A stretch of DNA of 64,000 nt from an uncultured Planctomycetales bacterium (GTDB lineage: Bacteria > Omnitrophota > Gorgyraeia > Zapsychrales > Fredricksoniimonadaceae), in assembly GCA_964583975.1 (NCBI GenBank), contig CAZOXU010000003.1, positions 7,805-71,804 on the forward strand, written 5' to 3'. The notes beneath the pieces are model-generated. The model saw only the letters and a program-made list of their open reading frames with translations, ran no database searches and was not told where the DNA came from. Below, piece by piece: positions 18,073-50,400 of this stretch; positions within the stretch are counted from its first letter, which is position 1; every line of letters begins with the position of its first letter. A program made the translations under genes and the position numbers.

Positions 18073-18135
18073 GTAGGGGCCGGCCTCTGTGCCTGCCCTT
18101 TTGATTATTGGGCAACCACGGAGGGTTGCCCCTAC
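18073..18135. repeat. REP doublet (REPIN-like): GTAGGGGCCGGCCTCTGTGCCTGCCC - spacer - GGGCAACCACGGAGGGTTGCCCCTAC
   Basis: Two REP units in inverted orientation upstream of mutS. Confidence 0.65.
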
Positions 18136-18183
18136 ATTTTTCTAATTTACCTAAATTAATTTCTATGTTATAAAGATGCGCTT

Positions 18184-20700: not shown

Positions 20701-20759
20701 GGGCAACCCCCCGTGGTTGCCCAATAATTAAAAGGGCAGACACAGGGGCCTGCCCCTAC
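20697..20759. repeat. REP doublet, reverse-complement arrangement of the upstream doublet
   Basis: GTAGGGGCAACCCCCCGTGGTTGCCC - spacer - GGGCAGACACAGGGGCCTGCCCCTAC. Together with 18073..18135 forms an inverted pair bracketing mutS. Confidence 0.65.
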
Positions 20760-20773
20760 GAATTGGAAACAAA

Positions 20774-23007: not shown

Positions 23008-23367
23008 CTACGCTTCCTTCGGCCACCAGTGGCTTCTGATTTGATCTGCACAAGTTCTGGATAAATACTGACTGATTTCTTGCTTATCATCATCTTTGAT
23101 TCTACTAAATTCCATACCATAAAAATAACGTCCTTCAATTTCTTTATTCCAACGCACCTGGGCTTGAATATTTAGAACAAGATCGTCTTTTAAGTCTAAC
23201 AGCACATCAAACACATAAGCATCAGGTAATGGTTCTTTAGAGGAAATCTTAATTCCTTTTAAATTCATGTCCTCAATACAGCATTTTCGTTCCCATTCAT
23301 GTTCTCTTATTTTCATTTTTGCTTTTTCACCTATTTGCCAACGGGGGATTTGGCGAAGTTCAGTCAT
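23008..23367 (-). CDS. PilZ-domain-like protein (c-di-GMP binding family)
   Basis: 119 aa. RxxxR-like IPRWQIGEK and D/NxSxxG-like EDMNLKGIKI motifs in the right order and spacing. Confidence 0.4.
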   Translation of the reverse strand: MTELRQIPRWQIGEKAKMKIREHEWERKCCIEDMNLKGIKISSKEPLPDAYVFDVLLDLKDDLVLNIQAQVRWNKEIEGRYFYGMEFSRIKDDDKQEISQYLSRTCADQIRSHWWPKEA

Positions 23368-26400: not shown

Positions 26401-29400
26401 CTTTAAAGATTATTGTCCTAGGTGTAGATTCTTTAATATTCTCTGATAGAAATTGATCTGGCAGACGTCTTAAATCACTATTTTTGTCCCTATAAAATAC
26501 GACTTCTCGTTGTTGTTTGCTATCCAACACCTTGATCAGCGCACCTACACGCCAAGTGTTCTCATCTTGAGGATAAATCACCACATAAACCTTAGACTGT
26601 GGGGTGCTAAAGGTTAATCGATCCTCAAAATTCTCTAAACCTATTAATCGATTATTGTATTCATGACGATTGGCCTCATTCCAAAGTAGCGGAAATTCAT
26701 AAACGGGCAATTCTTTAACATGCTCTTCCACTTCCTCTTCATCATCCCCTTGTATTTTTTTATTACTTAGTCCCAGACCTATTTTTGATTTTAACCCAGC
26801 ATAAAACAAGAAAATTAATGCAAGACTAACCAGCAGACCAGCAACTATTAAAGGAATGGCATAAGGTCTATGATCACTTTCCTCATCATCTTGATTCTCC
26901 CGATTACTTAACTCTTGTTGTTCATTGACTTTATTATTGGGATTTTGTCTGTGGGGTAAGTCGAAGGTAAAGTTTGTTTCTTGAGTAGATCTTGAAGAAG
27001 TAATACCAGGTGCTGCCGTAACAATTGTTTGTGCTGAAGCGGATTGTACGGCAATGCTTAAGAATACAAACAACAGAACTACGGATCTTGTACCTGCTTT
27101 TAAAATTTGCGCAAATGCACCTCCATCCGTACCACCAGTACTGCTCGCTGGACCGCCAACTAAGAGAGGCTCACCATCTGGTGTGGCATCATCTCCTTGC
27201 CAATCTTGTGCATCTTCTTGGGGCACATCTCGATAGTCTGTGCTATTAGTTATAATTAAGGCATCAAGGATTCCTTCGGCACTCTGATCTTTATCTAGTT
27301 TTGAAAATGTCTTTGGATATTCTTCTCTGAAAATCTCTAATTCGGGTCTCTCCTTAATGCTTTTCTCTAACCGACCGTCTTTGATGGGAATGACCGAAGA
27401 TAAATGTACGCCAAAAATCTTATCCAAGCCTACCAGATACGCCGCATGTCTTACCATATCCATAAGATTAGTCTGTTCCGCATCCCGCTGAGAACGTAAC
27501 ACTGTTGTATGGCCAATCCAGAATCCTTCATTAGTGTATTCTTCCAAGGCGTTTTGCATCTTTTTACGACCATTGAGCATAAAAGCACTCAAAAGGAGTC
27601 TGCCTTCATCCTTATTACGTTTCATCCATCGCTCAAAATTTTCTCCTTTTAACGTCGTGTTATCATCAAAAAGAATGACTGTAGCCTTTGTTTTCATTCT
27701 AGCTTGTTTAACGCCATCCCAAAATTTAATGGCCTGCGTAATAATAGGACGCCTTCTGTAATAATCTCCCATATGCTCTGGTGCGCGCTTTTCTCTTGCA
27801 TCGTCCTCTAGTTCAGAAATCTCAAACCACACTTTGAAAGCAATCTTACGATCATTGTTTAAGAAAACTTCAATCTTCTCTAAAGCATCTTCTATGCTTT
27901 TAGAAGCTCCTCTGGCAAAAAGATACTCAGCTAAGGTTCTGATAGCTCCTACATCGATTGTAATGGCCCATTGTTTAAAAGCATCTTCACCTTGGCCCAT
28001 CTGTTCTAACCAATCTAAATAGAAATCCCACACTTTAGGAAACTCATTGTAGTACGCAAGTCTCTCATTAATTTGCCAATCCTTAGGAATCCAATCAAAA
28101 TAAAAGATTCCACTTTTATTGTCTAAAACCACAAATCGATGTTTTCTGGCTTTTTTCACCAGATGATTCACTGGATCTTCCCAAGCTTGAATTTCAGGAT
28201 AGGTCTTGGGCTTGATAGCTTGCTGCAAACTGTCACTCCTTCTAACAAACTCACGTTGTTCTATCGCATCTTCAATAATATCTTCTGAACTCCTTTGGGG
28301 AAACTGTATCTTAGTAGCCCCTTCTTTGGCAGCAGCTTCTTTCTTGGGAGGAAACATAATATCTCGTCCTGCTTGAGAATGTTCTTTCCAAGAGCCTACG
28401 AAAGCAAGGATTCTCTGGTTAATATGAGGATGTTGTCTAAATCTAGACAAGTGCTGATAAACATACATCTCAAATGCATCTCTTGCTTTCTCCTCAAATG
28501 AACATTGATCGAGTTTATAAGCTAAGACCTTGTAAATCTTCTGGATCAGTTTTAGATGTACTCGATGGTATTGCAAATTTCTCGCATTTTGAATTGTAAT
28601 CGATTCTTCTAACACGATCAGTCTTAAAAGCCAGTACCACATCGCTTCGGATGGTTGTTCAAGAATATTGAACATATATAAAGGTGAGGCTGGTTTAATC
28701 TTATCAACATTAAAAACCAATCGTAGGATCATTTTCTCAAATCGATCTGCATCTTCTTGTGTTAAACGTACATATGATTTTCCAAAGTTTTCTATGGCCC
28801 AAAATAGAAGATATGCGTTGGAAGTTGTGAATGTCTCGGGTCTTTCATATAAAAGCGCAATCAAAGCATAAATATAATGTTCCAATCTTTTAAAGAATGA
28901 CTTGGCCAAATCTTTTCCCCTCAAAACCAAGTCATTGTGATTACTTAACATTCTTAAAGGGTCCCACTCAATGACTGTCTTAAGCTTCTTAGCTATGTCT
29001 TCACGGACCATAATGCTCAAGGAAGGATCAACACGACTGATAGAAAGTTCTATTTCTGGTCTTTTTTGATGAGACTTTTCATCATCCGCTCCGACAAAAC
29101 AATTCTTCATATCTTTCAATCGGTAAATTGGCAAAGCCTTACCATTATTAGCTTGGGCAGACTCTTCTTTAAAAACCACGTGATACACCATTGATCCTTC
29201 TTGGGTTTCCCCAACCTTCTTAACATAAATTTGTCGTGCAATGTCCAGCCAATTGCGTCCGATAAGTTTCATGGCTTCTGAAATATTATAAATGCTCTGG
29301 CCATTCCAAATTCTAGGCTCAAGTCTCCCTGAGATATCCTCAGCTATCCCCATAAATCCTAAATCTTCTAAAGCAGCTATTAAACAATTGACCGTATCTG

Positions 29401-32400
29401 TTGAGCTGGCCTCACTTTTGGATGGTTGGCCTCTATTTAAACTTTTTGAATTCGATGCTTCAGGAATACCGATCATATATTCCCCAAAGAAAGGATCATT
29501 GCGAATAAGTTCTAGAATTCTTAAAACATCTCTAAATGGTATGTCTGCACCTTCAGCGAGACTTCGTTCGGTTGCGAAATCCCCGTTCACAAGCATGAGA
29601 CGCAGAATTCCTTCTGCTGCTGTCTTGTCGTCTTCTGAAAAACTTTCTAAGATTCTGGCAACCACTTCTAAAACACGCTCAACAAATCTTTCTGGCATAG
29701 GCTCACGTCCATCACCACGATTTAGCTCTGCATGCCTGAACTTTCCAAACAAAATTTGGAAATGGTTATACGTGACTCGCCTAACATCTTTGAACCAAAA
29801 TTGCTTTCGAACGTCTCTCGGATTTAATCCAGCCTCCTTTAGAAAATTGTCCCAAGATCCAAATTCACGGATAACTTCGATAACAATTAATTTCCCATCC
29901 AAACGAATGTTATGCATTTTTCTATCTGCTATAGAACCTAAGAACACTGCGCTATGCTGCTTCATGGCATATGAAGCAAGAGCCACCTGTCCTTGTGCTA
30001 AGGTTTGGATAATTTCAATTAACTCTTGATATCGAATATGTTTTCTAGATTCGGCTTTTGCCTGAGCCCAGGAGGTAAAAAACTTCTTTGAGACAACTAT
30101 TTTATATAAAGCCTTGCCGCTAACTGGCTGTTTAAACAATTTTGTTAACACAGCTTTAACCTTACCCTCTGGATCACCCTTAATGATACTAGGGCATAAA
30201 TAGAGTGGATCTAATTCTTTAGAAATTGCACCGATGGCCTTTAAGATTTTATTCTTTGACCACCGAATAGTCTTTGGAGCTTTTCGTATGTCTTTAGGAT
30301 TAAGTCCTAACTGTTCCAAAAACTTATCCCAAGATTTAAAAATACGTCCCACAGCTAAATAAACAGAATTAGTGCTAACTTTCTTAAGTTTATATCCATG
30401 TTCTTCTAGATAGGCTTTAATTAAAATCTTTAATTGATCGTTCTTATTCTTCTTAAACTCATATAAATTTAATTGAGCATTCTGTGATACTAAATACCTA
30501 CCAATATTAATAAGTAGCTCGTGTGTCCAGAGTTGCTGATGTGGCTTTTTAATATCTTTTTGATATTCGATTTTTTCTTGGGCAAGTGCTGTATTCACAG
30601 CTTTTTCCCAAGAACAAAGTTCTTTATTGTGGCGAGAAGCTTGATACAAAGACAAACCATTAAGTGGTTTTTCAAAATGCTTTGTTAAAACATCTTTTAC
30701 CTGTACCTCCTTACAAATAAAAGTGTTATTCAAAGAACTCAAACCTAACTGCGTACGTATAACCACAATTGCTTCAAGAATCTTCTGGGTGGTCCAAAAT
30801 TTCTTCCTTCCTTTCTCTTGTGCTCCGACCCAGGCATTTTGTGGATCAGGAACTTGGGTAATATCTATGTAGTGGATTTGTTCTTCGGTTGAGAGTGCTG
30901 CGTATTCTTGAGGAGTGATTAAGTGCCAGATGGCTTCGCCTTGGTCCGTCTTAAATCCAGTCAATTTGACAAATTTAAGCTTATCCTTTAATCCACTTTG
31001 ATTCTCTATCCATCGAATAACAGCATCAATCTGTTCAACAAACTGTCCGCGATTTCTGACAAACTTACGAGCACCGCTATCTCTAAATGCTTGCTGTCTT
31101 GTTTTATTAAGATGTTCTAAACCAAAGCTCGAAACATAGCGATCAACGCAAGTCGAAACTACAGAGGATGCAAAACGCCATTCCTCTGGCGTATTAATGT
31201 TTAAAACATCATCTTTTTCTGTTGAACAATAAAAACTAGCCATGCCAAAACCAATCATCCCCTTCCATCTTGCTACCCTTTGATTGATTCTACCCATTGC
31301 CAAAGGATCCTCGGGCAACAAAGGACGAGGATCATCAGATGTTTTGTTAGGTTGTAAAAGTGATCTTATTTTATGAAAAAGATTCTGCAGACGATAAGCC
31401 CAGCGACTCACAATAAATACACCCGTCCAAATTTCATCAATCTTTTCAAGTTGATGCGCATCATAACTGGTGCCATTAGGTAGGGTAATTTTTTGATTGG
31501 TCGAACGTAAATAATCAATCTCGCTTTGGGCAATGGTAAATTCAACTTCTTTCCAAGAATTGCGTACGACACGATCTTCTCCATGTGGATGCGAAACAAC
31601 TGTACTTAAAGCCATAAACGGTGGTGAACGGCCTGAAGAATTAAAAGCACTGTGCTCTATGAAATTGCGTAATGTTTCCTGGCTACGAATAATCGTGTCG
31701 CCAGGAGCAACTACAATTCGCTTGGCCGAAGTTGGAATAGCTCCTTTAGCACTAAATAAGGCATTGCTAACGCCCATTTTAGCAGTTGTAACAAAAACAT
31801 TGCCAGAGCCGCTAATTGCCTCTTCAAAAACTCGATGGTATTGAGGTCTAACTACACTAATTGTTCTAATACCTATTTGAGCTGCTGTGCCATTGATATA
31901 AGAAATCAGGGGCTGGCCTCCCACAGGAATCAATGGCTTAGGCAGATTAAAACCTAGGGATTGGATTCGTTTACCTTCACCTGCAGCCAAACGTATAACA
32001 ACCCAGTCTTGAGGATCAATCTCTTGCTTCTTATCTTCTTCAAAGGCATGGCGCAGGTCTTCACGGGACAATTTACCGAACTTCATACAGCTGAAATTCA
32101 AAACGACGTTATTATTCTTTCTTTTAGCATCTTTTAATCTTTGTCGATCTCCTTTGTGTTCTAGTGCAATGCCCCCTAATTCCCATATAAAAAATATTAA
32201 ACCTACAATGATTTTGGAAAATATGCTTTCCCGATGACCTTTTTCAAGAGGAGTAAAAGAACGATAAAATACATTGGCTATTCTCGTAATAAGGCTGGCC
32301 CTATGGTACAAGAATAAATCTGCTTCAATTCCCCATTCAGACAAATATTCCAAGCTCTGTCCCTCTAAGATCACGATCTTCTTGGTTTTATCGACAAGAA

Positions 32401-35400
32401 ACGTTCTTGCATCACGCAGATAATCTTCCCAGACCGCATAACTATTCGTAAGATTTAAAACTTTGATCTCATTAGCTGGAATACCAGACAGACCGCTACT
32501 GAGAATCTGGGATAATGTTGATTTTCTCGTTCCTCTTTCTCCTGCGATTACAATCACATACGGTCTTGTTATTTGATCCTCAGATATGGATATTTTCCTT
32601 ACACCATCAAGTATCCTGTCGCGGATATTGCGCAGAATCATGAGTTGGTCATCCTTATTATTAAATCGGTGATGAATGTAGGTGGTGATCACAAAGGCGA
32701 AACCTTGCCGGAAACCGAATTGCGGGAAGAATAAAATAGCTAAATAATTAAACAAAGTAATAAACAAAATATTATGCCATGGTGGTGGCTGAGGAGCATT
32801 TTTCGTACGCACAAAATGCAATGCAAAAAACACACTCCATGTGACTAGTGTTGCCAACCATACTGGCCATACGATCATGAGCACTAGATTTGCGCTCCAA
32901 CCTAATACTTGCTCAATCCAGGCTTGATGCTTACGATTAACACCCAATCGGTCTAATACAACTGTCAGCAATGGGATCATCCCACCTGTTGGTTGATCTT
33001 CTTGAGAGTTTTTGATTAAATTTCTCCAATCGATCCCTTCACTTTCAGCAATAGATGTCAAGAATACCGATACTCGTCGTCGGTTTATAACAGTAGAGGT
33101 GACATCATCATTATAAAAAACCCTGTCGTTATTTATCTTCAACAATCTTTTGATCATCGTTTTCGATAGTCTTTTTAATCCATGTCTCACACTCAGCGCT
33201 TGGAATATAATTTCCAATTGTGAGCCTGACAATCGAACAGAAGATTCATCAATAGCATCTGCTCTCCTTACATGCTCAGCAAAATCTTCCTCTGTTTTCT
33301 CAACAGCTGGAATTTCTTCACCCACCATCTCTCGCCAATTAATTCTTAAATGTTCTGCAACTAAAATCACAAATGCGCAGATGTATTGCAATTTTTCTAA
33401 AGAAATACCTAGAGAACGGACAAAAGCTCTATCAACGACAAGTTGAGGCACGCCTAAAATGTAAGCAATCATTGATCGCTGCAAGAATTTGAATTTTGTC
33501 ACAGCATTAATGCTTTCAAGAATTCGTTCTAACTGAACAGGTTCTAAGATAGGAGTTTTGGGTGCTCTTTCGCGTGCTGGCTTAACAAACGTTCTAAAAA
33601 ACTTAACCAATTCCATTCTTTGTTGGGACGCTCTTTTAGCTGAAGGCCACAAACATGGACTTAAGCTTTCAATAGTAGTTTTATAAAATTGAATAAGCCT
33701 GAGACGGAATTCTTTGTACTTTTCTCCCGTTGTATCAGACTCTATTTCCGACAACATTTTCTCATTGATGCCTATCCTGTGAGCGATATCCTTATTTTTC
33801 AAAGATTTATCAAACAAAAGCTGAACAAAAGATCTTATGAAAAATAGCTCTATTCCTCTTAATGAGTTGTTTTCAATGATATCTTCATCAGCTTTCTCAA
33901 GACCTAAAATCCTCTTCCAAGGAATACGATTGGTTTCAGTGAGAGCGATCAGGGTTTGTGTGACGCGTTTTTGACGTTCTAATACTGCAGCAGGTCCCTT
34001 ATCCTTAATATTCGTCAAAAGATACGTTTGTACTCCTGCATGTTGGGCTATATCAGCCTGGGTCAAGCCTGCTTCCATGGAAAGAACCTTAAATAAAACA
34101 ACAAGCTGTTCTTGAGTAAATACCAACACTGGAACTTGCGCCTCTACTTCCTTTTCCAATTCATCTAATATCCCCATCCACCTTAGACGAACTTCTTCTC
34201 CGGCTTGATATAAATCTTTTGCATTCTCTGTGCGTCGAACACCAGCAGAAGAATATCCTAATTTTTCAGCCATATAATCAGTTGATACATATCGCAAAGT
34301 CTGTTTTATTTTTAAACGGCGTTCTCTTAATTTATTTCCATCTTGTACCACCACCTTAGGTGATTCTGCTGCAATTGAGACGACCGATACTGCTTGAAGT
34401 TGAGTAGGCAAAATTTCAGTAACCTTTCGGGAAACTAAGGCTTCTTCCTGCTGACGAATTCTATCTTGTTCAATATGTTGTAATTCCCTGATTCTTACTA
34501 AGATTCCTTTTTCTCTTAATAAACTCTCTAAAACGTGATCATCAGAGATCTGTAATATCTGCTTAAACATATCCCAATCAAACCTGGCTTCATCGGTAAA
34601 GATGCCAATCAAGACTTCAGGAGTAAATTGGTGCGGATCTCGATGGTCGCGTTTTCGTTGCACGTCCTGATGGGCTGCTCGTTGTCGACCTTCGCGTTGG
34701 TTTTTCTTCCATGTGGCACCAACCAAATCATTCGAACCTATCATTCCACGATATTGAGAAAATGGAAGGTAGCCATTCTTTGCGCTTCGGCTATAAATCA
34801 TATGCCAACGATTTTGGCCTACTTTGCGAATATAAATGTGCTCCATATCTAGTTTTAATCTTGTAAAAACATCGATGACCTTAAAGAAATTCAAATAATA
34901 CTTCTTACCTTCTATGGTAATGGAGAAGTGTTTGAGATAGGTCAGCGCTTTGTGATTAGCATCTTTAACTTTTTGACTCTTCAATACTAAACAAAGTGCT
35001 TCATAAGCACAGTTTTGTTCATACATTTTCTCTTTTTTCTTATCGGCAACTATTTTCTCTTGCTCTAAAACTTGATCGATATTAGGAATCTTTGCTCGGC
35101 CGCTTTTCATAAGCTCCCAAGCTTGTAGTTTTAACCACTGGGCATCGGCTTTATTGATAATCGTTCCATTGCATACAGCCACTAAATAAGCTTCTGGCCA
35201 ATCTCTTTGGGCAGCTACATCAGCCAAACTGTACCCATACTCCCTAAATGTTCTGGGAACCCCTCTTAAATCCATAGCATCAAATTCTTTATAATCAATA
35301 GTTGGTACAAGACCTGTGGGAGCTGCCTTAGGTTCTGTTTTGATCTCTTCTTTAGGTTTTACCTTGGGCTTAAGTATCACAACAGACTTTTTGATATCAG

Positions 35401-38400
35401 GCTTTTTATCAGCTTTGGGTTGAGGTTCAGTAGGCTCACGTTTACGTTGAACCGATTTTGGTTTAGGTACTCTAGGTGGTTGTGGACGAGGGAATTGTGG
35501 CCTTAAACTCAATTGCTGTGAATCAGCCGCTGGATTAGATTCATCAGTCCTCTTGGCTCTACCCAATATAATATCCTCCAAAGCTTCCTTGATGCTTTTA
35601 AGCAGAGCTTCATCTCGCACAAAATTATTAATCAAATTCCTTATAGAAAAATCTGGTACATTTAAGCGTCTAGCAACACGCGTAAGCATCTCACCCTGTA
35701 AAAAAGGTTTTAATTCAGGACCTGTCTTGATCCTTATAATTTCATCTAAAGAAATTCTATCGGCACCGATCCAGGCATTGCGGGGGAATTGGTCGAATGG
35801 GATTGCATCTTTCAAATCATTCTGACTTAAATTAATCCTAGAAAGATCCTGACAATACGTAACGTGAAAATGATTTATGATTATTTGATGATCAAAAGTC
35901 TCAAGCAAGGTGGGTTTGTAATAAAGAATACCGGTAGATAAAATGACTACAAAATGCTGCGCATCATCGCGCCTGATTTTATACAGCTTTAGCTGACTAC
36001 CAAATGTCTGCTGCATTGCGTCCCAAGCGAATCCTGATAACATCAAGACCCTCTTGTTACCATCTTTAAGGGTCACAATATTGATCTGATCTACCGGAAT
36101 CTTGGCCTGATAATGTCGGACGATTGTTCGGAGCTCTGGCTCGGTCACATCAATTCTTTGATGCACTGCCTGCGTGTATGCCATTACCTGACAATTCTGA
36201 TACAACAAAGCCAAAACATCTAAACCATCTAAGTAATGATCAGGGATTCTTTCTACCGCATCGATATTCTGTGCACCTATAAACGCACGCGCTGATTGAT
36301 CGTCTTTTATATTTTGATAAGTATCCCACAGTGAAATGTACATATACTTATTGGCTAAATCCGTATGATAAAGAATTCCCTTCTCAAATGTTAAAGGATT
36401 AATGGTGATAAACACTTTGCGGGCGATTTCTTCGGTCAATACATCTCCTACTTTCTCAAAAACCTCGATGATATCGTAAATGACGCGATGGTTATAGCTA
36501 TGAGCCGTAACCTTTTCCCTGATTTTCTGGGCAATGTCTGTGTATCCCAACTGCTCCAAAACTACTTCCAAGCAATTTTTGAGCGGCAGCCATGTTGCTG
36601 GAGCTTCCAAAAGATACAAGGCTGTCTTTTTGTTTGTGTCCGGATAAACTCTACAGGGACAATCAGCCGCTGATAAAATCTGCGTAATTACCTTTTGCAT
36701 ATCACCCGTGCTATTGAAACGGTTCCTCAATAAAACTTTCCCTCCTTCTTTTAATACCAATGGTAAATCTCGTACAAACTGGACTAAATCTTCTGCATAA
36801 AAATCTACCTGCCATCGCGAAGCATATCCTGCATATGGCCGGCGTTGTGTTATGTACTGGTCTAATTTATGTGCAAGCTCACTGCCTTGCGCATACTCGG
36901 GCATGGCCCACAATATTCGGTCAAACTTATTCCAAACGCCGCTTTGGATAAACTCAGAAGGATACAAACCTGTCTGTGCTTCGACCATGAATCCGCCAAT
37001 GCGTGCAGATACTTTTATATTGGCTGTTTCTAATGAATTACGCGCCAGAACATGAACAGGTCTATCCATATGTAAAGATGCCAACCAGACATTAATACCG
37101 AAGCCTGGCTCGATAGCCAAGACATCCCCACCCGTAACAAAATCAAATGATTCTGGATAATTCTGATCCTTTCCTATCCAACGAGATTTAAAGCTCGAAG
37201 GTGGCAATACTGTTGGGAAGATGGGAAACATCATGCGGTGTAGGCTAGTGGATGAAGCGCTTGCCTTGAGATGCTCATAACCCTGGGCATCAAATTCCTG
37301 CATAGTAACTAACGACGTTTTTTCATCATATTCGACATATACAAAAGGTTTTCGCTTGCCTCCAATGGGGAAAATAATTTGGCCTAAAGACTTATCCTGG
37401 ATATATTGCGCAATGATGCTTTGGTCGCTGGCATACTGCTGAGCTAAGGCTGCCCATTGCTTGGCTGCGCCAAGTCTCATGGAAGAAATTTCAACATAAT
37501 AAGGACTTAAATCAAAATAATGAGGGTATTCATGATGTTTTCCAAGCAGAAGCTCCCTGAGCAGAGATTCACAGAGAACAGGAAAGACAGCAAGCAATCG
37601 ACCATCCGATGAGAACAATAAATCAAAAGAATCAACTTCTTTCGAGTATCCAAAATCGGATAACTCGTTATGTAACAACTGGATTCCTGTGGGAGGTCGA
37701 GGAGGATACAACTTCTGCTCAACCTTCATACGTACCACCATCTCACCAGCAGACATATTTTCTAGACCCAATGTTTTGATCAATTCAGCCGCGACACTTT
37801 CACCCCAAGCTTGATACAAGGCTGGCACAGTCTCTGGAAAACTACGTACAGTCTTAGTAAAACGGTACAAACCTATTTGATAATTACGTCCATTCTTAAT
37901 CTTAACCGATGCTACCTCCTTCATATCAAAAAGATACTCTTCAGCCAAATCTTTAAGAACTTTCTCGCCACGCCGCGGAAAAATTAAATAGATCTCACCT
38001 TTGTCTCGTAGAAATATGGGAGCTGTTTGAAGGAATCGACGTAAAGTCCTATAGTCACTATCAACAATCGCCATATCAAAATACGACAATGGTATGGCGC
38101 CATTTTCATTAGGGTACCATGGCGGATTCCAAAGGATTCGATTAAATCGCTCTCCTTCTTTAACTGGCGCAAAAAGATCACCTTCGCGAACTTCAACCAT
38201 CGTAAAATTACTTAACAAAGCAGCAGCCTCAGATACAGATCTTGGATTAATGTCTATTGCTACATACGTTACATCTTTAGATTGTGTTTGTGTAGCCATC
38301 GACTTGGTTAATTCACCTGAACCTGTACCCATTTCTAACACATGTTCGCCCGGTTGAATCAATGAGGCTAATTGCCTTTCTACAAGTCCAATAATATGAG

Positions 38401-41400
38401 GATCAGCCCGTAACACTGAATCATTGTTCTTTAAAAAGAAATCGGGTTGTTCAATTAAATCAGCGAGTTCTTCAACAGCGCTTTTCTTGTGCAAATGCTT
38501 CATACCACGCTGGCGCACCAGGAAGCTAGTAATTTCACTAGCCAAGAAATCTAAATCTTTTTTACTTAATTCCAGACTATTAAGCTCAATAAAGTTACGT
38601 TGCACAGTTTCATCTCCTGGAGCGTGTAAAAATCTTTCTTTAAATCCTTTTCTTAACTTCAAAAGCTTTAATCTTAAATTCTGCAAGCGTTGATCCCACT
38701 TATAATCCGGCCACAGTTCGTACAGATTACGTAAAACTTTTCCTTTTTTCGATGAATAAAACAATAGCAGCGGCACCAAGTAATCTTCGACATTGTGATA
38801 TCCGATTTGTTCGCCCAAATCTACCAACACCGCTCGACCATCTCTTAGATTACTATCAAAGAATTTCTGAGGAATATGCAGCTCATCAAACATAATAAAG
38901 GATTGCTCAAGCATTTGCTTTGCTACCTTCCCTATCTCTGGAGCCCTCCACACCTCTGGATACTTCATAACAACATTTCCACGATGGAGATCATATGGTG
39001 CGACAAAATCTTTTGTTTTTCCCTTATTTAATTCAAAGAAAACATTCATCAGAAGAACAAACACTTTATCGGCAAAAACCGGATCGATGTATTTAGTCTT
39101 TTGAATTTCTCGAATAGGTCGTCCATCAATTAATTGTTCTAATGAGACAATATAATGAGGCCCTTGGATAGGTTGAGTGCGGACCTTTCCAAATTTACCT
39201 TTTTTCTTCTTCTCGACGTAAATAACCTTTGAGATTCTGGGAACTAAGCCACTGTGTTCCAGTCTTTGGTGGGCCTCGAGCTCTCCTGGCTCATACAATG
39301 GCAAACCACGCCTTACGTCAGTTTTAATTAAAAGTTCAAATGTATAGTTCAAACCCTGATCATTCCGTAAAGTAACTGCATAAACGTCTTTGCGCATTCC
39401 GTACCCATGTAACCCCAGACCAACATATACAGTTCCCATAATATTAGGATTCTGCAGAATACTTTCGAGACGATCTTGGAAAACACCACGACCAAACTGA
39501 AGAATATGTGTAACTAACTCTAGAGCAAGGCTAGTGTCTTTTGTAACGTCTTTTAGGTCGATATCCCTAACAATTTTGAAACTGCCTATCGGGCGGGGTT
39601 CATCTGGAGGCTGACCTTTAGACTCCTCCGCCCCGATGTAATCTGTTAAAGGAAGATCGGTAAGCAATTTATTTGGCTCATTCCAAACATTTTTATCCCA
39701 CGATGTTGCATGCAGCCTGCCATTCTGAAATGTCATAACATAAATCCTCTGCAATAATTTAGGCGCATGATTTTTTAAAAACTCGACTATAAAATAAACT
39801 TGAAAATACGGATGCCCATCAATGACTCGCACATTTCGCAGTTCGTTTGAATAGATATATTTATAAAATCGGCGTGCAAGATCATCGGATACTTTCATCA
39901 ATATCTTAAATACACAGTTTCGGCAATTACGCCACTCTTGCGAATCTTCCTCAGGTTCTAGATTATCACTCGTTGTTCTTATATCTAAATATCCGTCATC
40001 TAACAAATCCCCATCATATTCATCTGAGGTGATTGCAGCCGGGTTCGTGCTTCTTTCAACAACATCTATTGGCCGTATAATTAGGTAAGGTTTTTCTATA
40101 GAATTATTATTGAGTAAACGAACAACTAAACTTTCAATCAATTCAAGTCCTAAGAATAAGATAAAAAGTATGAACCCTCCTATAACATAGGTAGAAAGGA
40201 CAAATTGGAAAGGAAAGATCGATGGGGGAAGAGGTTCCAAATATATCCAATCGTTCAATATGCTCAATACAACAATACTTATCGCTACAGGTTCTGCCTG
40301 TATCTTTTTACCCCAAATAAGAAACAAGCTAGATATAACTCCCACAATAGCTATAGGTAAAACCATGTTGGGCCATATCCAGAAAACTCTTTCAGGGACA
40401 GTGACCAAAACGATGTTTTCACTACGAAAATCTATGAGTTTATCAGTCCCTAGAACTATGGCCCCTACTAATAACGATTGAATAGTCGCAATAATGAGGC
40501 GATGTAAAATCTTAAGATCCTTGATACTCTTTTCAACATGAAATGTGTTAAGGAATGCTTGCCACCACAAATTAACCTTCCAGGGGAATAGTTGCGGCAC
40601 GCCACTTTGCTGATAGATGTGATAAGCTAGACCGAAACGCTTACCAAGCTCCTTTTCTTCTTGAATCGTGTGATAATAAGTCTGTATGACCGCAACAAGA
40701 CATAGAGCAAATAATAATACATTAGGATATATTAAAACCATCGACCCCATCATCAACGTCTGTAAGAAATATTGTGGATGGCGCACTAGTTGATATGGTC
40801 CATAGGTGATCGGTTGACCTTTATCAATACGCATTCCTTCTTGGCGGGTTTTTGAAAACCATCGATTAAGTTTTACTAAGGCTGCTGTACTTAAAACCAT
40901 TAACGACATGCCAATAGTAAAGGTGCTCCAATTAAATCCTTGTAAAATTCCTAGACTGGAAGATTTTTCTAACGGCAAAGCCATTAAAATCCCACTCGAC
41001 ACTTTTTGGTTTCTGTCCGGCGGGCCGCGCTGTGAGGCAGAATCCCCTACCCCTGTCAAACCAGAATAACTTCTATGTGTAATTCTTCTTTTTAATACCG
41101 CTAGAATAGAGACCTTTAAAGCCCTCCATGTAATTAGGGCCATTAATCCCAAAGACCAATGTTGAATTTCGAAATTGTTGCACCTGATGATTTGCTGCAA
41201 CATTCTTCTTATTTCAGAAGAATCAGAAATGGTTGAACTTTTAAACTCTACCTTTGTTGCAAAAATTCCAAGCACTCCTGGTTTCCTTCTTAAGAGTGAC
41301 TCGGGCAGGCGTTCCGGAAAGAATTTTTTCCAAAGAGGACGGTATCCAAAAATTGCCATGTCACCTTTGAGTATATTAAAAATCTGAGGAAGCTCGTCTA

Positions 41401-44400
41401 ACCCTGTCTTACGTAAAAATCTACCTATTCGTGTAGCTTGTCCTTTTCGTGGGCCTTTTTGAATCAAGGTAATAAATTTGTATATCTTAAATTTTTTCCC
41501 CAACAAACCTACTCGTCTTTGGGTAAAGAGGATCTTCTTTTCTTCGGAAAATACGAGGATGGAAACAGCAACAACAATCATCAATGGAAGTATAAAAATA
41601 AAAGCTATGCTACCAACGATTAAATCAAACGCCCGCATATTCAAAGGTTGCAAGTGTTCTAAAAACCAACGCCTAGCTTGTTTTAATTGAGAGAATGCGA
41701 AGAAATATAAATAAAGCAAACCTGCCCCTACTCCATAAGCCAAGATATCAAACCAATCAAAAACCATTCCCATATCATTTGGTTCACGAAAAGACGTCAG
41801 AGGCATTAAAACTTCAATGAGGCTACTTATAAATAGTGAAAGCAAGGTTATTTGTACTGCAGAAAGTTTTACATCAAGAATCCAATCCCACAAATATATC
41901 ACCATAGCAAGTAAGAACGGTAAAGAAACATCTGGCAATGAACCATTGAGGATGCCATCTACTTGTGTAATTTCAAAATTACTCTGGCGAAAATTCATAC
42001 CCCAAGCAGAGAGCCACAAGAATAATCCTGACAACAAGAAAAGTTCAATGAATTTATTCAGCCAATCTTTTCTGTGCGGATGCGCATATCTTGCAATAAT
42101 TCCCCAAAGAATCACAATTCCCAAAATTGCCCAAGTGGAACCCTCAAGATCAATGACATAAAAATATTCCTGAGCCAAAGCATTGCTTAAGATAAATCCT
42201 AGCAAGAGCATTAAACTTACGATTCCTACAAGAAAAACAACCGAAACAGATCCGACTTCAGCACAGCGATCTGTCGACTGAAGCCTGGCAATTGTCCTTT
42301 TAATCCACCAAACTCTTAGAAATGCCGGAGGATGTGATGTTTGCAAAATGTTTTCTTTGAAATAATTTCCTATCGTATCGGTTACATCGTAACCTGCTTC
42401 ATAAGCATAGGTAGCTCCCCAATAATCCGCCCTTAACTCCTTAAACCAACAGACCAACAATTCAGCGAAAACGATAGGAATCAATAAAACAATAGGGATC
42501 CCTAAATACCAAGCTATCATTGAAGCTAACGGAACGAGGAAAGGAAACGGAATAAGTGCTTGAGACATGTTACGAACAATTTTAAAGAATCTGTTTTCTT
42601 GCAAAGCATTGTTTCTAAAAGCGGTTTCTCTGAGATGAGCAATTTCATGGCCAAAAACAAAAGCATGATCTTTCTCACCCCTTTGCTTCATGTCATCTTG
42701 ATCCAGGGTAATTAATGCAGGTATACAATAATAAATCTGACTTCGTTGACCATAGCCTAATACGAATGGTACTTCTTCCAGGGGTTGATACGCCTTTGCT
42801 GCAGCATGTACGTTATCAAATATTCTTAAGATTGTTTGATCCTCAATGACTTCATATGTAGATGGGTTCTTAGATTTGAATGGATAAAAGAAACATCGTG
42901 CAGCGGCATACACAGCCATGCCGACCATGATTAAATCGTCAACCACAGAAAGCAGAACTATTTGGAAGCCCATGGCGATCCCTAATGACATGGATGGGAT
43001 AAGACGAATGTCTATCTTATTTTTATAGTACCTCTGTGTAAGCTTCGTCAGCAAAAATATCACAATACCGTAGGCAAACACATAAAAAATAAAATGAGGA
43101 TGGCGTTCTTGAAATGTTTGAGAAGATTTAAAGGTAGCCTTTATTGCAGACCACCGATTTACTAAATGCGCAGGAACATTTATGAGAAATTCTTCAACTT
43201 GCGGTTTGATTTTAACGATGAGATCTTTGAAGCTATTTAATTGTTGCTGAGTAATATCAGCATTCAATTTATTAATATACTGCGCTAGAAATGTTCTTAT
43301 CGCATCGCTATGCGCGAAACCACCAAACCCAACCGAAGCTTTCCTTCTAACATCAAAGAATGGATTGTTAGGATAAATTTCTTCTGTTGGCCAATTTAAA
43401 GGAAACTTTTTAAAGAACTCATCCCAAGTTAACCGTAATAAACCAACCCACTCATATGTTTGCTCTTCCTTTACTCTAAAAACAGGGGACCCGCTATCAC
43501 CACAAAACACAACCAGCGTTGAGAAATAAACTAATTTATGATATGTTTCATCGGTATGAGCTTGATCGAGAACAAATCCTTCAGGTAATTGTTTTTCTTC
43601 TTTGGCCATGACCCGACCATAACGTCCTTCCAAAAGAGAATCAGAAGGAATATGGATCCTACCCCACACTAAATTATTGGATATTAAATCAAACTCATAC
43701 GACTTAGATCTCAAATTCTTGATGGCTAGGGCAGCATCTGAATCCGCGATTTGATAAAATAAAACGATCGGATCTTCATCTTTAACCTTAGGTGCCAAGG
43801 AAAATGTGATACCCTTTGGCATAGGAACATCGTCTTGTGTTCGTAATAAAGACAGATCTCCTTGGGCTTTATCAAACTCATTAACTACTACAAACGTATG
43901 CCAGTCGTTCTTATCCGTACTGCCACGTTTTTTCTGCTGAACTAATTTAAAATCCTTCTCACATTTAGAGCAGACAACATGATACTCCGTTAGAAAAAGA
44001 TTATCAGCTATTTGAACGGCCCTACCTATTGAATATTCTGAATCAACATCATAAAGCAGCCCGCTAATATCAGCTTGGGTAAGTGAGTCTTGAGAATTTA
44101 AGATGCTTTGTAAATCTCGCAAATGGGATTGTTTTTGTCTAAGAGTTAAAGTAATCGCAGGTGCAGCAGCACTTTCAATCTGTGCTGATCTTCCCATCAT
44201 TGGTGGATGCTGAGCAAAAGCTGGAGCTGAAGCAAAACAAAGAACGGTCAAAACCCCTAGCCAGGCTTGACGCAAAGCATTATTGGTAGTACCCTTAATT
44301 ATATGATTAAACCATCTGCAGGTTACGTCTCTAATATCAAAAAAGCCATTGCTAAACTTCCCCCGAAAGAACGTGTTCAATTGATTGACTCTTTGCAAAG

Positions 44401-47400
44401 AGAAAGTTGGGCTCAAAGATTTAAGCAGCTTCTCAAACGCATCAATGCCCGCTTTGCCAAACATCCCCTGTCTGCTAAAGAGCTCAATAAAATTATTGAA
44501 GACGCTCGGGAAGAATATCATGCTAAAGGCAGTCGTTGATACTAATGTCCTCGTTAGTTCGCTTCTAAAAGGTACGACTGCTAGAAATATCATCGCCACA
44601 CTCACCCTCAATAAATTTACTCTTGTACTCAGCGAAGATATTTTTGAAGAGATTGTATTTACCTTACGAAAACCTCGATTAGCAGAATTTATTCCTGAAT
44701 CAGATATAATTGTGCTGTTTGCGTTACTGCACCAACGTAGTTTATTTGTTAAACCGAGCAACATTGTTAACATTTGCAGAGACAAGAAAGATAATAAGTT
44801 CCTGTCTTGCGCTTTAGCGGCTAAAGCTGACGTTATCGTCAGCGGAGATAAAGATCTGCTCGTGCTTAATCCCTTCGAAGGTATTGCAATTATTTCTCCT
44901 ACAGAATTTCTGATCATGCTGTACAAGGTTTGAATCCGAACTATCGCTTTTTTATTCCATGGCGTCCAGTCTTTGAGTGGAACAATGAAGGTTCCCAGAA
45001 ATGGACCAAACAAACGCCAAAGGTAAGCTTCTTCATATAAGAAAACAACCTGGCCTGACCAATTCAAATGAACAGCTTTGGGAGGAATTGCCCCTAAATT
45101 TTGTTTAAACCGTATAGGAGAAACAAGACAGAAGAATATAAAATGCACCATATATAAGCCAAAAAATATAAAAGCAAAATGTCCTACTATCGGTAAATAA
45201 AAATTAGTGAGGAATAAAACCATTAGTGATGGCAAGGCAATTATAAGACTTGCAAATTTATTGATCATTAAAAGAGCAAAAATCCAAGTGTCGTTATATT
45301 TAGATGGATTTTGCTTAAGATATTCCCCCCATGAAAGCGATCTAGTAGGCACATTTCTCTTCTCCCAAATCATCCAATAGACTGTTAACAGCGATAATGC
45401 CATTCCCAATGTAGTAAAGCCCACCGTGCTTCCACTAGCTACCAAAGCCGCTGATCCAATAATTCCTATTGGCAGAGCTGCGAATGTAAAACCACCTTGG
45501 GTTGATTGAGGGGTTGGATCTTTTTGAAGGTTTTGGACAGTCGGTCTTTGGGTCCATTGTTTTAATTTATTCCAGACAAGTGAAGCTCTAGCCTGCCGCA
45601 AGGCACCTTCCACCCTTTCTTTTAAATGTTCCAGCAACAGTCTGACATAAAGCTCCTCAGGGTGTTGAACAGCAGCTAATTTCACAGTATTAATCAAATA
45701 ATCTTCAACCACGCTCGAAGCATCGATCTTACCGATCAGAAGATTTGCTTCATCTAAACGGCGCAAAACCTTGCCCACTAAAAGTTCTCTGTTCTCTGGA
45801 TTTTGATCTACTTCCTCTAAGCGGCGCTGGGCGACATCAAGCAATTGCTCAGCCCAAGTTAAACGATTTTCATCAGAAGATCGTATCTCCTGCCGAGCTA
45901 AATCAAGCAAGGCCCCATGTTGCAAAGCAATCCCAGCATTGGCAATTTTTACCGAGTTGATATTGGCGCTTAATAAATGACTTGGTGTAATGAAAGAAAT
46001 GTCTGCTTTTCTAGTGAAACGTGTGTAATTCGAATATGAAAAAACACTAACTGGAAGATCAAGATCGTAAACGCCTTTAGGTTCTTTCATTGCTCCATCA
46101 ACAACAATGACTAGATCTAAATCCGGAGGGAATTCACGGAAACCATAAATATAGCTTCCCAAAACATAAATACTCCACACTTTCACATTAGGACCGATAT
46201 GTTTATAAGCCATGTCTTGAGCCCATTTGACAAGCACATCAGAATTAATACTATTAAGTCTCTCCACAAAAATAGTCTTGGCCCCGTCACTAAATGGGCC
46301 GTAAATAGTTTGGTTGATCTGTTGCAAATATTCCGGGGGCATCAAACGTTTAAAACGAGGATCTAATACCATCGGTTTAAATTGCCTTTGCCGTCGAGAT
46401 ATCCAAGTTAATTCAGATAACTGCGCAAGTGTCAAGTCATAGCGCCTGGCCAACAAACTTCGTACTTTTTGTACAGAAAGTCCACTATTACCCGATGCCT
46501 GCTCCCGACCCACTAAAATGGCAGCGACACTACGCAAATCTCCTTCAGTCAGCCAGAAAATCAGTTCATCATTAATTCTTGTGGTTAGGGCTGGATTATC
46601 TAATGTTGTTCCAGCTAAACCATGAAGAAGTGAAATAGCTATTTCACCTGGTGATTTACGACGAGATCGATAAAGAAATCCTAGAACTTTATCAAGATCT
46701 CTTTCAAGAAACGATTTTGGAAAATCTAAATACGCTGGGAATGTAAGAAATTCTTTGGTGTGCGAAGAGTTGCGCAAAAATTCTTTGATCTTACGTGTGA
46801 TGCGGACAATCCAAAACCAGTGTCTAGAGAATTCAAAACGGGATGAGTTATCTTCAATCAATTTAAACTTTGCTGTTCTCCAACCAATCCAATGCGCCAA
46901 CCAACTCACAAGACTTCCAATACGATGTTGGAAAATAATGCTTAAGAAGATTGCAAGAATGAGCACGGCATCAACTAATCGTGTGGATATTCCCAGAAAA
47001 GGTGCCGACAGCCCACTGAAGAATCCACCAATACCAAGGACCGTCAAAATCTTAGAAACAACTCTATTGTGAGAATCCTGGGAATCTGCTTTTTGCAAAA
47101 ATTCACTCATACTATCATCGGTGCGGATCCATATATCTAAAGAATCAACACCTTCGGTCAGTACGAATGTTACACTTACATTATTGTGTTCTTCATTAAT
47201 ATAATAGTTGACCCATGGCGGGATGTAACTCTCTCCATTGATAAGAATCACTGGCAGACCTTTAGGATCAGAACGAGGTTGATCTTCTTTTACTACCTGC
47301 CCCACATAACTTATTTTAAGGTCTAAATGATGCCTATCTTTTCTATCTATAACAAACAGATTAAGTTCGCCGTCTTTGTCTAAATAAAACACCCCTTCAT

Positions 47401-50400
47401 TATATGGATTGATGGCACACCCAATGGTTTGCCGTTTCTCTAAATGAATCGTGGTCCTAGCTAAACCTTTAGAAGAAGCCTGTAATTTGATTGTCTTAAG
47501 ATGCGGCTTGGGACGCTGTAAAATTCTTTGCTGCAACATTCCCGATTCAAAATCAATAATAGAACCTCGTCCCCACAAATAGGACAAAGTAATTTCCCAA
47601 TAAATAAATAATAAGTTGTGTGCATAAACGATAGCCCAGACATACTTGGTACACCCCGTAAAGAAATCTACGAAGAATAAAAAGTTTAATACAAGCACAA
47701 TAGAGGCATTGGCCATTACTCCCACAAGCGCTTTAAGACCATGGACCTTCCAGGGCATACCATGAAATAAACCAACCCCGATTCGCTTCCAACCATAATC
47801 ACTGCGTCGCCCATTTTCTGGCCCCACAACAAACTGTGCTAAATGATTTGGAATAAGGGCTGCTATAAATAAAATCTGTATGGTAAAAATTTGTAGGGAA
47901 CTTGAATTTCCTAACATCATAGGTAGATTAGCGACCATGGAGGTAGCTTGTTTCCTATTGCGTCGAGTCTTCACTGAAAACCAAGCATACACAACTAAGA
48001 AAATAAGCCATCCCCAAATCCATACTTCAGCCCAATTCCTTACTAACCAATCCCATAAGTTACTTCCCCATCCAGCTGATGCCAAAACGGTTATACCAAC
48101 GATCCCCAAAGGTAGGGCTGCAAATATAAAAACATGCATTTTAAGATAATATCTCAATAAATATAGGCTTAATGCTGCAACGCTAAGCAGGATAATGCTA
48201 GTATTGCTCCAGAAATTATTGCCATCTGCTTCAAGCAATCCTACCCAGGCCTTCTCAGGATTAGGAACTTGCTTAATATCTATATATTGGCTTTTTTCTT
48301 TGGAACTCAGTGCGGCGTACTCTTGTGGGGCAATTAAATGATAAATAAATTGACCATCCTCTGTTTTAAATTCAGTAAGCTTGACGTATTTGAGTTGATC
48401 TTTTAAACCACTTTGACTCTCCATCCACTGAATAACTGCTTGTATCTGTTCAACATGCTGATTAAGAGCGTGCACAAATTTACGCGCACCCATTTTATTT
48501 AAAATCTCATGTCGTTTTTGGTTTTGGTTCTCTAGCCCAAAGACCGTAACGTACCTATCTACGCACATGGGTAAAGATAAACGTGGAGTTAAAGCTATAA
48601 ACCTAGCAGGATCCATCGACAAAGACCTGGCTGCATCCGCATTTAACGGCAGGATTATTGATATTTGGCTTGCCCTTCTTGGCTCGCTTACAATATGAAG
48701 CTTTCCTTGATATAAAAACTCCGCAACCATTCGGGCCGCTTGCAAACCAGTTCCAGCACCATAAGCAAAACCCTGAGCCATTTGTCCTCTAAAGCCATAA
48801 TTCCCTAAACTCAATTTTTCATTCTGGTCAATCCCAATGCCAGTATCTGCAACTGTAATAATTACAATTCCATCATGTTTTTGTAAGCTAATGGCAACTG
48901 TTGAATTTACTAAAGAATATTTAATGGCATTGTGAATCACTTCTCCAATTACAACGTCCTTTAAATTAAGTTCGCCATCTTTAGATTTGATAAAAATCTT
49001 CTGATCAGGAAGATCCATCTTTAAAGTGATGTTTTTGCTTTTAGCAAAGCCTCCTAGATACGTCCCTTGAACCAATTGCATAATCAATTCATTTAAATCC
49101 AAGAGGTTTTCTGTAATATCGCAAGCCGTGCTAGTGGCTGTGACTTTGGACTGATTAAAATTAGCGCCTGACACTAGTTTTTCTGGTTCTTCACTCTTTA
49201 CAAACGGCTTAAACGATAAATACTTCATAGCCCAGAATGTCAAGACAGCCGAAGCGATATGGACCCAGAAATTAATGTATAAACTTTCACCTTCAAGGAT
49301 TCGAGTGCGGAAATTGTCCTTGGTCTTACCCATCTCAACCAAATTAGCCAAGATCCACAGGAAGCTAGCAACGCTCAAACGGATCATCAGTGAACGTCGT
49401 TTTGATTGCTTATCCGTTCCATTAAGGTTTAAATCTTTGCCCTTACGCATAAACCCGAACACAGATATAAGATAGAAATATCCGGTAAGGGCTGGAATAC
49501 TTAAAATCCTTAAATACTGTGCATTAAACTGACTCCACAAGCTTCCATCAGCATCCATACGTTTAAAATAACGGAGGAAACTGTTATTAATGAGATCCCA
49601 ATTACCAACGATATCTTTGCGAATAATAACAAGAATGGTTAAGGCTATAGCAGAAACGAAAGAAATTACCGTTGGCCAATAAATAAACGGACGTGTTTTT
49701 ATCAAAGACTGCTTCTGATAGAACTGTTTATAAAATACATACCCACCTAAGACAACAGCATCCAAAGCCAACATGACAAACATCAGATTCTCATAAATAA
49801 ACGGCCTAGCAATGGTGGATATTGGGGTCACCAACCACGTTATTGTAGTTAGAATGCCCAGCAATGCCATTCGTAGAGCCCAAGGCATCTTTAAAATTTG
49901 CGGTTCTTTGTAATCTACAGATTTTTGTGCTAGAAACACACTACGAATACGGCGAACATGTGGAGCATCAATTTCCTCACGCTTAACTTCCCGATGGATC
50001 GCCTGAATATTTTCAAAACCAATCTTCTTTAGCATTCCTGGAATTCGTCTGGCAGATTGACGATTGGTGCGGCTTACCCAACGTGGCGGAAGAATATTGG
50101 TGATAATAATCCATCCGCCGGGCTTCAATTCATTAAACGCATGGCGATAAGCCGCTCTTACTCTTGACCAACGTTCAAACCAAATGTATTTAAGCCAATT
50201 AAAAAGCTCTACTACAGGCCCTTCAATAGAATGATATAGGTTTGTATTAATGAGCTGCAACCATGACAGTGGATCATTCCATCGTGGCTGTGCATTCCAA
50301 GCTACAAAATCACTGACTCGATGAAACACAACAGCATTACTGCCTGGATATTCTTCTTTAGGAAACCAACGTTTTTGGGTAGCTACATCAATACCAGTCC

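Follow-up and report, generated by a model that had tools for sequence, protein, structure and literature searches.

The 64,000-nucleotide stretch of contig CAZOXU010000003.1 analysed here (the window) carries on its minus strand a giant open reading frame (ORF) of at least 13,519 residues counted from its first ATG. The 30 nucleotides between this ATG and the window edge are free of stop codons, and the ORF may therefore extend beyond the window. Within it we studied the feature at 36703-39523, minus strand (giant-ORF residues ~8150-9089), for which a preliminary description made from the letters alone had proposed a kinase-like fold followed by two methyltransferase domains. The motifs quoted there (HRGN, VDLGE, VLEMGTGSG and WNPPW) all lie in the minus-strand translation of this one ORF, and the residue range 8150-9100 given with them fits the coordinates. 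Residue i of the giant ORF begins at window position 63970-3(i-1). Domains were called over the giant ORF by Pfam and NCBIfam profile scans, and the region around the feature is organised as follows.

23411..63970, minus strand: giant ORF holding all three domains (ORF listing)
33413..40144, minus strand, residues 7943-10186: longest stretch free of predicted membrane segments (hydropathy scan)
38531..39553, minus strand, residues ~8140-8480: atypical protein-kinase-like domain (family alignment and fold model)
37856..38413, minus strand, residues ~8520-8705: class I S-adenosylmethionine (SAM)-dependent N-methyltransferase domain of HemK/Mtq2/MTS type (Pfam, NCBIfam and PDB)
37199..37855, minus strand, residues 8706-8924: inter-domain segment of no recognisable family (no significant Pfam, PDB or homologue match)
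36596..37198, minus strand, residues ~8925-9125: probable degenerate methyltransferase-like domain (marginal comparisons)

The three domains occupy the start of the membrane-free stretch, directly after a region resembling isoprenylcysteine O-methyltransferase (ICMT) and PEMT; outside them, this stretch gives only weak helix-turn-helix (HTH) matches. We think it probable that they form one soluble module (a kinase-like domain, an N-methyltransferase and a degenerate copy of the latter) within an inner-membrane-anchored multi-enzyme giant protein. The range first proposed matches this module except at its far end, where the second methyltransferase-like region reaches residue 9125 (window 36596).

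The giant ORF was considered as an artefact of reassigned stop codons or of concatenated genes, and both explanations were rejected. The flanking housekeeping genes terminate normally under the standard code (table 11), which argues against recoding, and 40.5 kb without a stop codon at 39% G+C is too long to be due to chance. A hydropathy scan finds about 60 hydrophobic segments along the whole length of the protein. Self-BLAST detects no internal repeats, so that the domains are not copies of a repeat unit, and more than 85% of the ORF is without a recognisable domain. From these features we predict a non-repetitive, polytopic membrane protein with several enzyme domains.

The kinase-like domain and its relatives

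The catalytic elements of the kinase-like domain were located in an alignment (A1) of 12 such domains, the window copy and 11 relatives.

39323..39325, minus strand: K8216, the β3 (subdomain II) Lys in ELLIKTD (A1 column K77, nearly invariant)
39281..39283, minus strand: E8230, the αC Glu in GELE (A1 column E91, invariant)
38975..38998, minus strand, residues 8325-8332: catalytic loop P-Y-D-L-H-R-G-N with D8327 and N8332 (A1 and the alignment to DAPK1 and PknB)
38837..38962, minus strand, residues ~8337-8378: insert of ~40 residues (gap in 11 of 11 relatives; predicted local distance difference test, pLDDT, 43-47)
38810..38824, minus strand, residues 8383-8387: V-D-L-G-E with D8384, the metal-binding Asp equivalent to that of DFG (A1 columns D245 and G247, invariant)

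Profile libraries do not recognise the window copy: Pfam gave no match at E<=10, including to Pkinase, APH and Choline_kinase, and NCBIfam gave none. A single-sequence phmmer search of the PDB with the kinase-like part returned only chance-level matches to SPT6 and AceK, with the motifs out of register. The same part found no relative in a word-indexed search of 5.8 billion proteins; the 1,041-residue region found one weak methyltransferase match in such a search, and no relative in genome and metagenome scans. Scanning 1.84 billion cluster representatives with HMMER recovered 14 proteins at E<=1e-3 (8 of them at E<=1e-10), and 13 of the 14 were judged to be real relatives, the best with an E value of 4e-29.

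The columns of A1 that are invariant or nearly so are those expected of a kinase. They comprise a Gly-loop G-x-x-K (G8191 and K8194 in the window copy), the β3 Lys in A-L-K, the αC G-E, a hinge E-E-F-I-E-G, the catalytic loop G-P-x-D-x-H-x-x-N and the V-D-L-G motif. In the catalytic loop, P186 and N193 are invariant and D188 and H190 nearly so, and the loop is in register with DLKPEN and DIKPQN of DAPK1 and PknB. In the window copy HRGN occupies residues 8329-8332 (window 38975-38986) within YDLHRGNVVM (8326-8335), and VLVDLGE (8381-8387) has its VDLGE aligned to the IDFG of kinases. The C-terminal helical part of the family is distinct and has a conserved LY..WP..W. The family signature reads G-x-x-K-D-V-F ... 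A-L-K ... G-E-L-E ... E-E-F-I-E-G ... G-P-x-D-x-H-x-x-N ... V-D-L-G ... L-Y-x-x-W-P. Searched against the PDB, the A1 profile gave weak E values (0.02-0.05), yet 36 of its 40 matches are protein kinases, DAPK1 and PknB among them, with hinge, DxxxxN and DFG all in register. Single relatives match Pfam weakly (APH 8e-4, ABC1 7e-3, Choline_kinase 0.12). By its sequence the domain appears to belong to a family that has no Pfam or NCBIfam model. Since the window copy keeps all five canonical residues, we predict it to be catalytically intact. Decay occurs elsewhere in the family: one relative lacks the catalytic Asp and His and another lacks the β3 Lys.

AlphaFold modelled the kinase-like part with a pLDDT of 35 without an alignment and of 79.1 with A1 (predicted template-modelling score 0.78). 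In Foldseek, the top 50 PDB matches to the model are all protein kinases (probability 1.0, template-modelling scores 0.3-0.5), and the matches among viral models are kinases only. Fold comparison scored PknB at 10.3, RIO1 at 10.0 and WaaP at 9.9. The model has the bilobal kinase fold of the protein-kinase-like superfamily, and the sequence carries the β3 Lys and αC Glu (judged on residue conservation in A1), the Asp-x4-Asn and the DFG-type Asp; the ~40-residue insert is placed in a surface loop and is poorly modelled. We take the kinase fold as established, as far as a model can do so. Structurally, the model appears to lie nearest to small-molecule kinases of the APH/choline-kinase type, by a margin over atypical protein kinases that is too small to settle the substrate class.

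These results uphold the kinase-like fold of APH or eukaryotic-like type that had been proposed, through the invariant columns of A1 and a model that matches kinases only. The subdomain II Lys, which the preliminary description had suggested looking for upstream, is present as the nearly invariant K8216, and the αC E8230 is likewise kept. Three further claims did not survive. The HRGN...VDLGE spacing had been read as matching that of known kinases; it is atypical, with 57 residues from Asp to Asp in the window copy against a canonical ~19 in all relatives, because of the lineage-specific insert. An activation segment had been assigned, whereas neither A1 nor the model contains a DFG...APE loop or an APE motif after DLG, and in the model a helix begins within ~10 residues of it. 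Likeness to Kdo kinase had also been suggested; KdkA and lipopolysaccharide (LPS) kinases of the WaaP type were rejected as candidates, there being no specific similarity to them by sequence or as closest fold.

Compared with known kinases, the fold is nearest to the APH/choline/homoserine kinase II type, yet the window copy has no Pfam match to APH (PF01636) or Choline_kinase (PF01633). These kinases carry the H-x-D-x4-N Brenner motif, in which the family has an invariant Pro in place of His (G-P-x-D-x-H-x-x-N). The family further differs from them in its own C-terminal LY..WP..W part, in the 40-residue insert of the window copy and in occurring as one part of giant or long multidomain proteins. 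Hanks-type protein kinases have an activation segment and a Pkinase match, and the kinase-like domain has neither.

The relatives are long (408-6,562 residues), largely unannotated multidomain proteins, and their partner domains vary: P0002 and P0010 carry GNAT, P0010 also FHA, P0004 a nucleotidyltransferase and P0011 a Hanks kinase. A weak methyltransferase match adjoins the kinase-like domain in P0003 and lies far from it in P0014. Because the partners differ from protein to protein, we rejected kinase plus methyltransferase as a conserved unit; the earlier suggestion that such combinations recur is not borne out among these relatives. Most full-length relatives start with a signal peptide or an anchor, and several have few transmembrane (TM) segments; P0006 (408 residues) consists of a signal peptide and the kinase-like domain and nothing more. 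Relatives may thus work beyond the cytoplasm of the producing cell, or inside another cell. A conserved N-terminus, made up of a signal peptide and a 'FRPLHLRY...LDKGD' domain, is common to many of them (P0002, P0007 and others), as is a 'GGIDF...LPI' motif at the C-terminus. P0002 and P0007 have repeated 'ASSPI/SSSPV' linkers between domains; the giant protein has no such linkers (one chance SSPL). In two different assemblies, the genes for kinase-like-domain proteins at 4419-5645 of locus L081 (GCA_014728305.1) and 7090-11295 of locus L082 (GCA_018818365.1) both adjoin a YjbQ-family gene, and L081 has a gene for an RsmD-like MTS methyltransferase two genes downstream.

Two methyltransferase regions

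Four short motifs mark the two methyltransferase regions in the translation.

38315-38341, minus strand, residues 8544-8552: motif I VLEMGTGSG of the first methyltransferase
38117-38131, minus strand, residues 8614-8618: motif IV WNPPW of the first methyltransferase
37097-37117, minus strand, residues 8952-8958: motif I-like AIEPGFG of the second region
36893-36910, minus strand, residues 9021-9026: motif IV-like WAMPEY of the second region

The first methyltransferase matches MTS in Pfam (3e-8, above the 23-bit cut-off), Methyltransf_31 (1e-7) and other generic models. In NCBIfam it matches PRK14968 (1.3e-16), HemK2/MTQ2 (1.4e-14) and PrmC (3e-11), every score falling far below its curated cut-off (60.6 of 162 bits for PRK14968, 54.2 of 87 for TIGR00537 and 43.2 of 199 for TIGR03534). 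Its best solved relative in the PDB is GenN (8e-9), and E. coli HemK is matched at 1e-4. GTGSG, the β2 Asp (AIDIN) and NPPW are all intact, and the motif columns are conserved in a three-sequence HemK-type alignment (A2), one member of which is E. coli PrmC. The (N/D/S)PP(Y/F/W) motif marks methyltransferases acting on nitrogen, in glutamine amides, exocyclic amino groups of bases and amino sugars. Given these intact motifs and family matches that stay below the curated cut-offs, the domain is best described, on its sequence, as a putative N-methyltransferase of the HemK/MTS lineage that falls outside every curated equivalog. The HemK-type NPPW methyltransferase first proposed is thus real at the superfamily level.

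With HemK/PrmC and Mtq2 (HemK2), which provide its best NCBIfam and Pfam matches, this domain shares GTGSG, an Asp ending β2 and NPPW. It differs in its scores below the curated cut-offs, in its fusion within a giant membrane protein and in lacking the N-terminal helical release-factor-binding domain of PrmC: no Pfam match lies upstream of the core, and the HemK alignment starts at HemK residue 89. We saw no match to a Trm112-type partner, as used by Mtq2, though no dedicated search was made for one. GenN (gentamicin 3''-N-methyltransferase, PDB 5u4t) likewise acts on an amino group and is matched over 115 residues, a likeness confined to the Rossmann core; unlike the first methyltransferase with its NPPW, it carries NSP at motif IV, and it works as a separate enzyme in an antibiotic pathway.

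The second region has no match in Pfam, NCBIfam, the PDB or the word-indexed homologue search. Compared with the first methyltransferase, it gives a marginal E value of 0.024 by BLASTP and a Smith-Waterman score of 62 (z 4.1, equalled in 2 of 1000 shuffles), the latter in an alignment that is collinear from motif I to β5. Aligned by hhalign to A2, it scores a probability of 52.7% (E 1.4e-4) over 70 columns. In a scan of 67 pieces of the giant protein with a hidden Markov model (HMM) built from two external methyltransferases, the first methyltransferase ranks first, the second region ranks second (E 0.036), and all remaining pieces have E >= 2. Its motifs are degenerate, with EPGFG at motif I, LARN replacing the β2 acidic residue and AMPEY in place of NPPW. 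From these alignments it seems rather likely that the region is a diverged, presumably inactive duplicate of the first methyltransferase. The second methyltransferase-like fold of the preliminary description stands as a marginal similarity; database support and intact motifs were not found for it.

RsmC/RlmG-type tandem methyltransferases also combine an active (N/D)PP(F/W)-type domain with a diverged, probably inactive duplicate in one chain. The arrangement in the giant protein resembles theirs in having a predicted active copy and a probable degenerate one in one chain, and departs from it in that the active domain comes first, a 220-residue segment separates the two and the duplicate is only marginally detectable.

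The giant protein and its surroundings

Other domains are recognisable in the giant protein on both sides of the module, all on the minus strand.

Residues ~490-1090, window ~60700-62500, minus strand: sigma-70 regions 1.2, 3 and 4 (profile matches)
Residues ~3480-3724 and, more weakly, ~10055-10097, minus strand: HTH motifs (profile matches)
Residues 5007-5110, minus strand: histidine-kinase-type ATPase, HATPase_c (profile match)
Residues 7098-7221, minus strand: M48 peptidase of Ste24/HtpX type (profile match)
Residues 7446-7620, minus strand: polyprenyl-phosphate glycosylphosphotransferase (Bac_transf, 2e-31)
Residues 7687-7780, minus strand: ICMT/PEMT-like membrane methyltransferase (isoprenylcysteine O-methyltransferase/LmtA-like, 6e-9)
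Residues ~10660-10820, minus strand: GlmU-like sugar-1-phosphate nucleotidyltransferase, NTP_transferase (GlmU N-terminal half, 2.7e-16)
Residues 13268-13438, minus strand: histidine phosphatase, His_Phos_1 (profile match)

For the NTP_transferase domain, the N-terminal half of GlmU is the nearest match, and MurU is also matched (7e-8). The M48 peptidase, the glycosylphosphotransferase and the ICMT/LmtA-like enzyme are consecutive (window ~40600-42700, minus strand, residues 7098-7780). A pairing of M48 and ICMT enzymes is reminiscent of eukaryotic CAAX processing. The sigma-70 stretch scores 53.9 bits against a cut-off of 42.9 with the NCBIfam sigma70-ECF superfamily model and also matches MzaA, the sigma factor of MZA anti-phage defence (1.5e-13); it is unusual for a giant protein to carry a sigma-like module tethered to the membrane.

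Giant TM-rich multi-enzyme proteins have been described from Omnitrophota and other phyla of the Planctomycetes-Verrucomicrobia-Chlamydiae (PVC) group, including 'Archaeovorins' with methyltransferases, glycosyltransferases and peptidases, and proteins of this class were proposed to act on prey (West-Roberts et al., 10.1101/2023.11.21.568195). A 'multi-enzyme metabolic cluster' class has also been defined, in a study that further describes an inner-membrane-anchored topology with TM segments only, a module combining methyltransferase, HATPase_c and GNAT domains, and sugar metabolism as a recurrent module of such giants (Nielsen and Lui, 10.64898/2026.06.07.730766). Like these giants, the ORF exceeds 10,000 residues, is rich in TM helices and combines numerous different enzyme domains with no dominant repeat, and it shares with them methyltransferase, HATPase_c, peptidase and sugar-nucleotide domains. 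The SecA-DEAD, HEAT, GT5/GT1 and NUDIX domains of Archaeovorins were not found in it by Pfam at E<=0.01. Unlike the described Omnitrophota giants, it has sigma-70 and HTH regions, and the nearest MutS to that of the window is labelled Planctomycetales. Judged by its domain content, the giant ORF appears to fit the general kind of giant, membrane-anchored multi-enzyme protein known from Omnitrophota and other PVC bacteria.

The rest of the window is an ordinary bacterial chromosome, with genes for MutS, MutL, AccA, RlmN and BirA, two tRNAs, a ComM-like Mg-chelatase, a YkuD transpeptidase and a PilZ protein. The stand-alone PilZ-domain gene (23008-23367, minus strand) lies 44 nucleotides downstream of the stop of the giant ORF on the same strand; the two may be co-transcribed, a hint of control by cyclic di-GMP. 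An ORF for an IS200-like Y1 transposase (10892-11353, plus strand; Pfam Y1_Tnp, 8e-7) directly follows the ComM-like gene. A 990-residue protein (11420-14392, minus strand) with coiled-coil-type matches only (ATG16, Golgin) and a 924-residue β-helix/TIG protein (15065-17839, minus strand) are encoded in the interval from the housekeeping genes to the giant gene. AT skew at 12-14 kb is strongly negative (-0.275).

The nearest MutS found (58% identity) comes from a metagenome-assembled genome labelled Planctomycetales. In that relative (L001), a minus-strand ORF (14393-22525) comes after MutS and MutL; it has 2,710 residues or more, its sequence being cut off by the contig end. We considered this large gene, which occupies the same position, as an orthologue of the giant gene and rejected it, since neither BLASTP nor phmmer finds any similarity; this lack of similarity suggests rapid turnover. 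The L001 ORF has kinase-like stretches of its own, 'SSPV' linkers and three near-identical C-terminal repeats of ~140 residues.

Function of the module and alternative readings

In the reading that we prefer, the kinase-like domain would bind ATP-Mg through K8216, E8230, N8332 and D8384 and pass the γ-phosphate to a hydroxyl group, with D8327 acting as the base. The first methyltransferase would use SAM to methylate a nitrogen, that of an amide, an exocyclic amino group or a sugar amino group. The second region, which has lost the Asn of NPPW and the β2 acidic residue, would serve as a non-catalytic binding or structural partner. Because ATP and SAM are needed, the kinase-like and methyltransferase domains would face the cytoplasm. 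Our preferred guess for the target is a small molecule, sugar or lipid head-group tied to the fused envelope-glycoconjugate enzymes. Judging from the conserved motifs, the most likely chemistry is ATP-dependent O-phosphorylation together with SAM-dependent N-methylation. The LPS-modifying role raised in the preliminary description finds no echo in similarity to LPS kinases; the fusion to envelope-glycoconjugate enzymes is the one point that favours the lipid or LPS idea.

Several observations weigh against this reading. The kinase fold model is based on just 12 sequences. The insert that is unique to the window copy adjoins the active site, and the call of the second methyltransferase-like region is marginal. 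The positive-inside rule is uninformative on the membrane side of the soluble stretch. Since the pairing of the domains is not conserved, the three need not share one substrate, and the signal peptides and few TM segments of the relatives argue for action outside the producer's cytoplasm.

The main rival is a protein-directed effector or regulatory module, combining Bud32/RIO/HopBF1-like protein phosphorylation with Gln or Lys methylation, on the giant itself or on host or prey proteins. The best NCBIfam models of the first methyltransferase, HemK2/MTQ2 and PrmC, describe protein-glutamine methyltransferases; most full-length relatives have a signal peptide, P0006 has little else beside the domain, and others add GNAT, FHA or a Hanks kinase; and action on prey has been proposed for such giants (10.1101/2023.11.21.568195). 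We nevertheless regard this role as unlikely. The kinase-like domain has neither an activation segment nor the substrate-binding C-lobe elements of Hanks kinases, the methyltransferase has no PrmC release-factor-binding domain and scores far under the family cut-offs, and the protein is TM-anchored, so that export of an internal 2,200-residue stretch is hard to explain. The domains might instead be decayed relics, pseudo-enzymes kept as mere structural spacers in a fast-evolving giant protein. The insert by the kinase active site, seen in the window copy only, the loss of catalytic motifs from the second methyltransferase-like region, the loss of catalytic residues in two relatives and the dissimilarity of the large gene that the closest relative carries at the corresponding position would all agree with decay. 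Against it, the window copy keeps the five kinase catalytic residues together with GxGxG, NPPW and the β2 Asp, and the model places the insert in a surface loop; we consider decay of the whole module highly improbable.

A third possibility is a line of sugar activation. An amino-sugar kinase is known to be paired with a nucleotidyltransferase in AmgK and MurU. By analogy, a NahK/AmgK-like anomeric or amino-sugar kinase would feed a GlmU/MurU-like nucleoside diphosphate (NDP)-sugar synthesis, the product passing to a lipid carrier through the glycosylphosphotransferase, with GenN-like N-methylation by the NPPW enzyme. Among solved structures GenN is nearest to the first methyltransferase (8e-9 against 1e-4 for HemK), the NTP_transferase domain matches both GlmU and MurU (2.7e-16 and 7e-8), Bac_transf is clear at 2e-31, and sugar metabolism recurs in such giants (10.64898/2026.06.07.730766). 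Against this, 600-2,300 residues and intervening membrane segments separate the three domains, NCBIfam puts the methyltransferase nearest to protein-glutamine methyltransferases, and the relatives of the kinase-like domain accompany GNAT, FHA and nucleotidyltransferase domains, not sugar enzymes. These points leave the sugar line quite doubtful.

Most of the sequence in bacterial giant proteins longer than 10,000 residues is 'dark' and lacks annotation, and the kinase-like domain offers a concrete, expressible fragment for probing their biochemistry. From A1 one could build a profile with which to annotate this domain in further long proteins. In practical terms the advance is modest, given that the folds are familiar and that multi-enzyme giant proteins were described before. 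A bolder proposal, which we think very unlikely, is that a new family of kinase-like domains serves giant and long multi-enzyme proteins and that here it works in a membrane-tethered line with the NPPW enzyme, the GlmU-like domain and the glycosylphosphotransferase, yielding a phosphorylated and/or N-methylated amino-sugar lipid intermediate. If that were true, a whole envelope-modification pathway would be held in one polypeptide.

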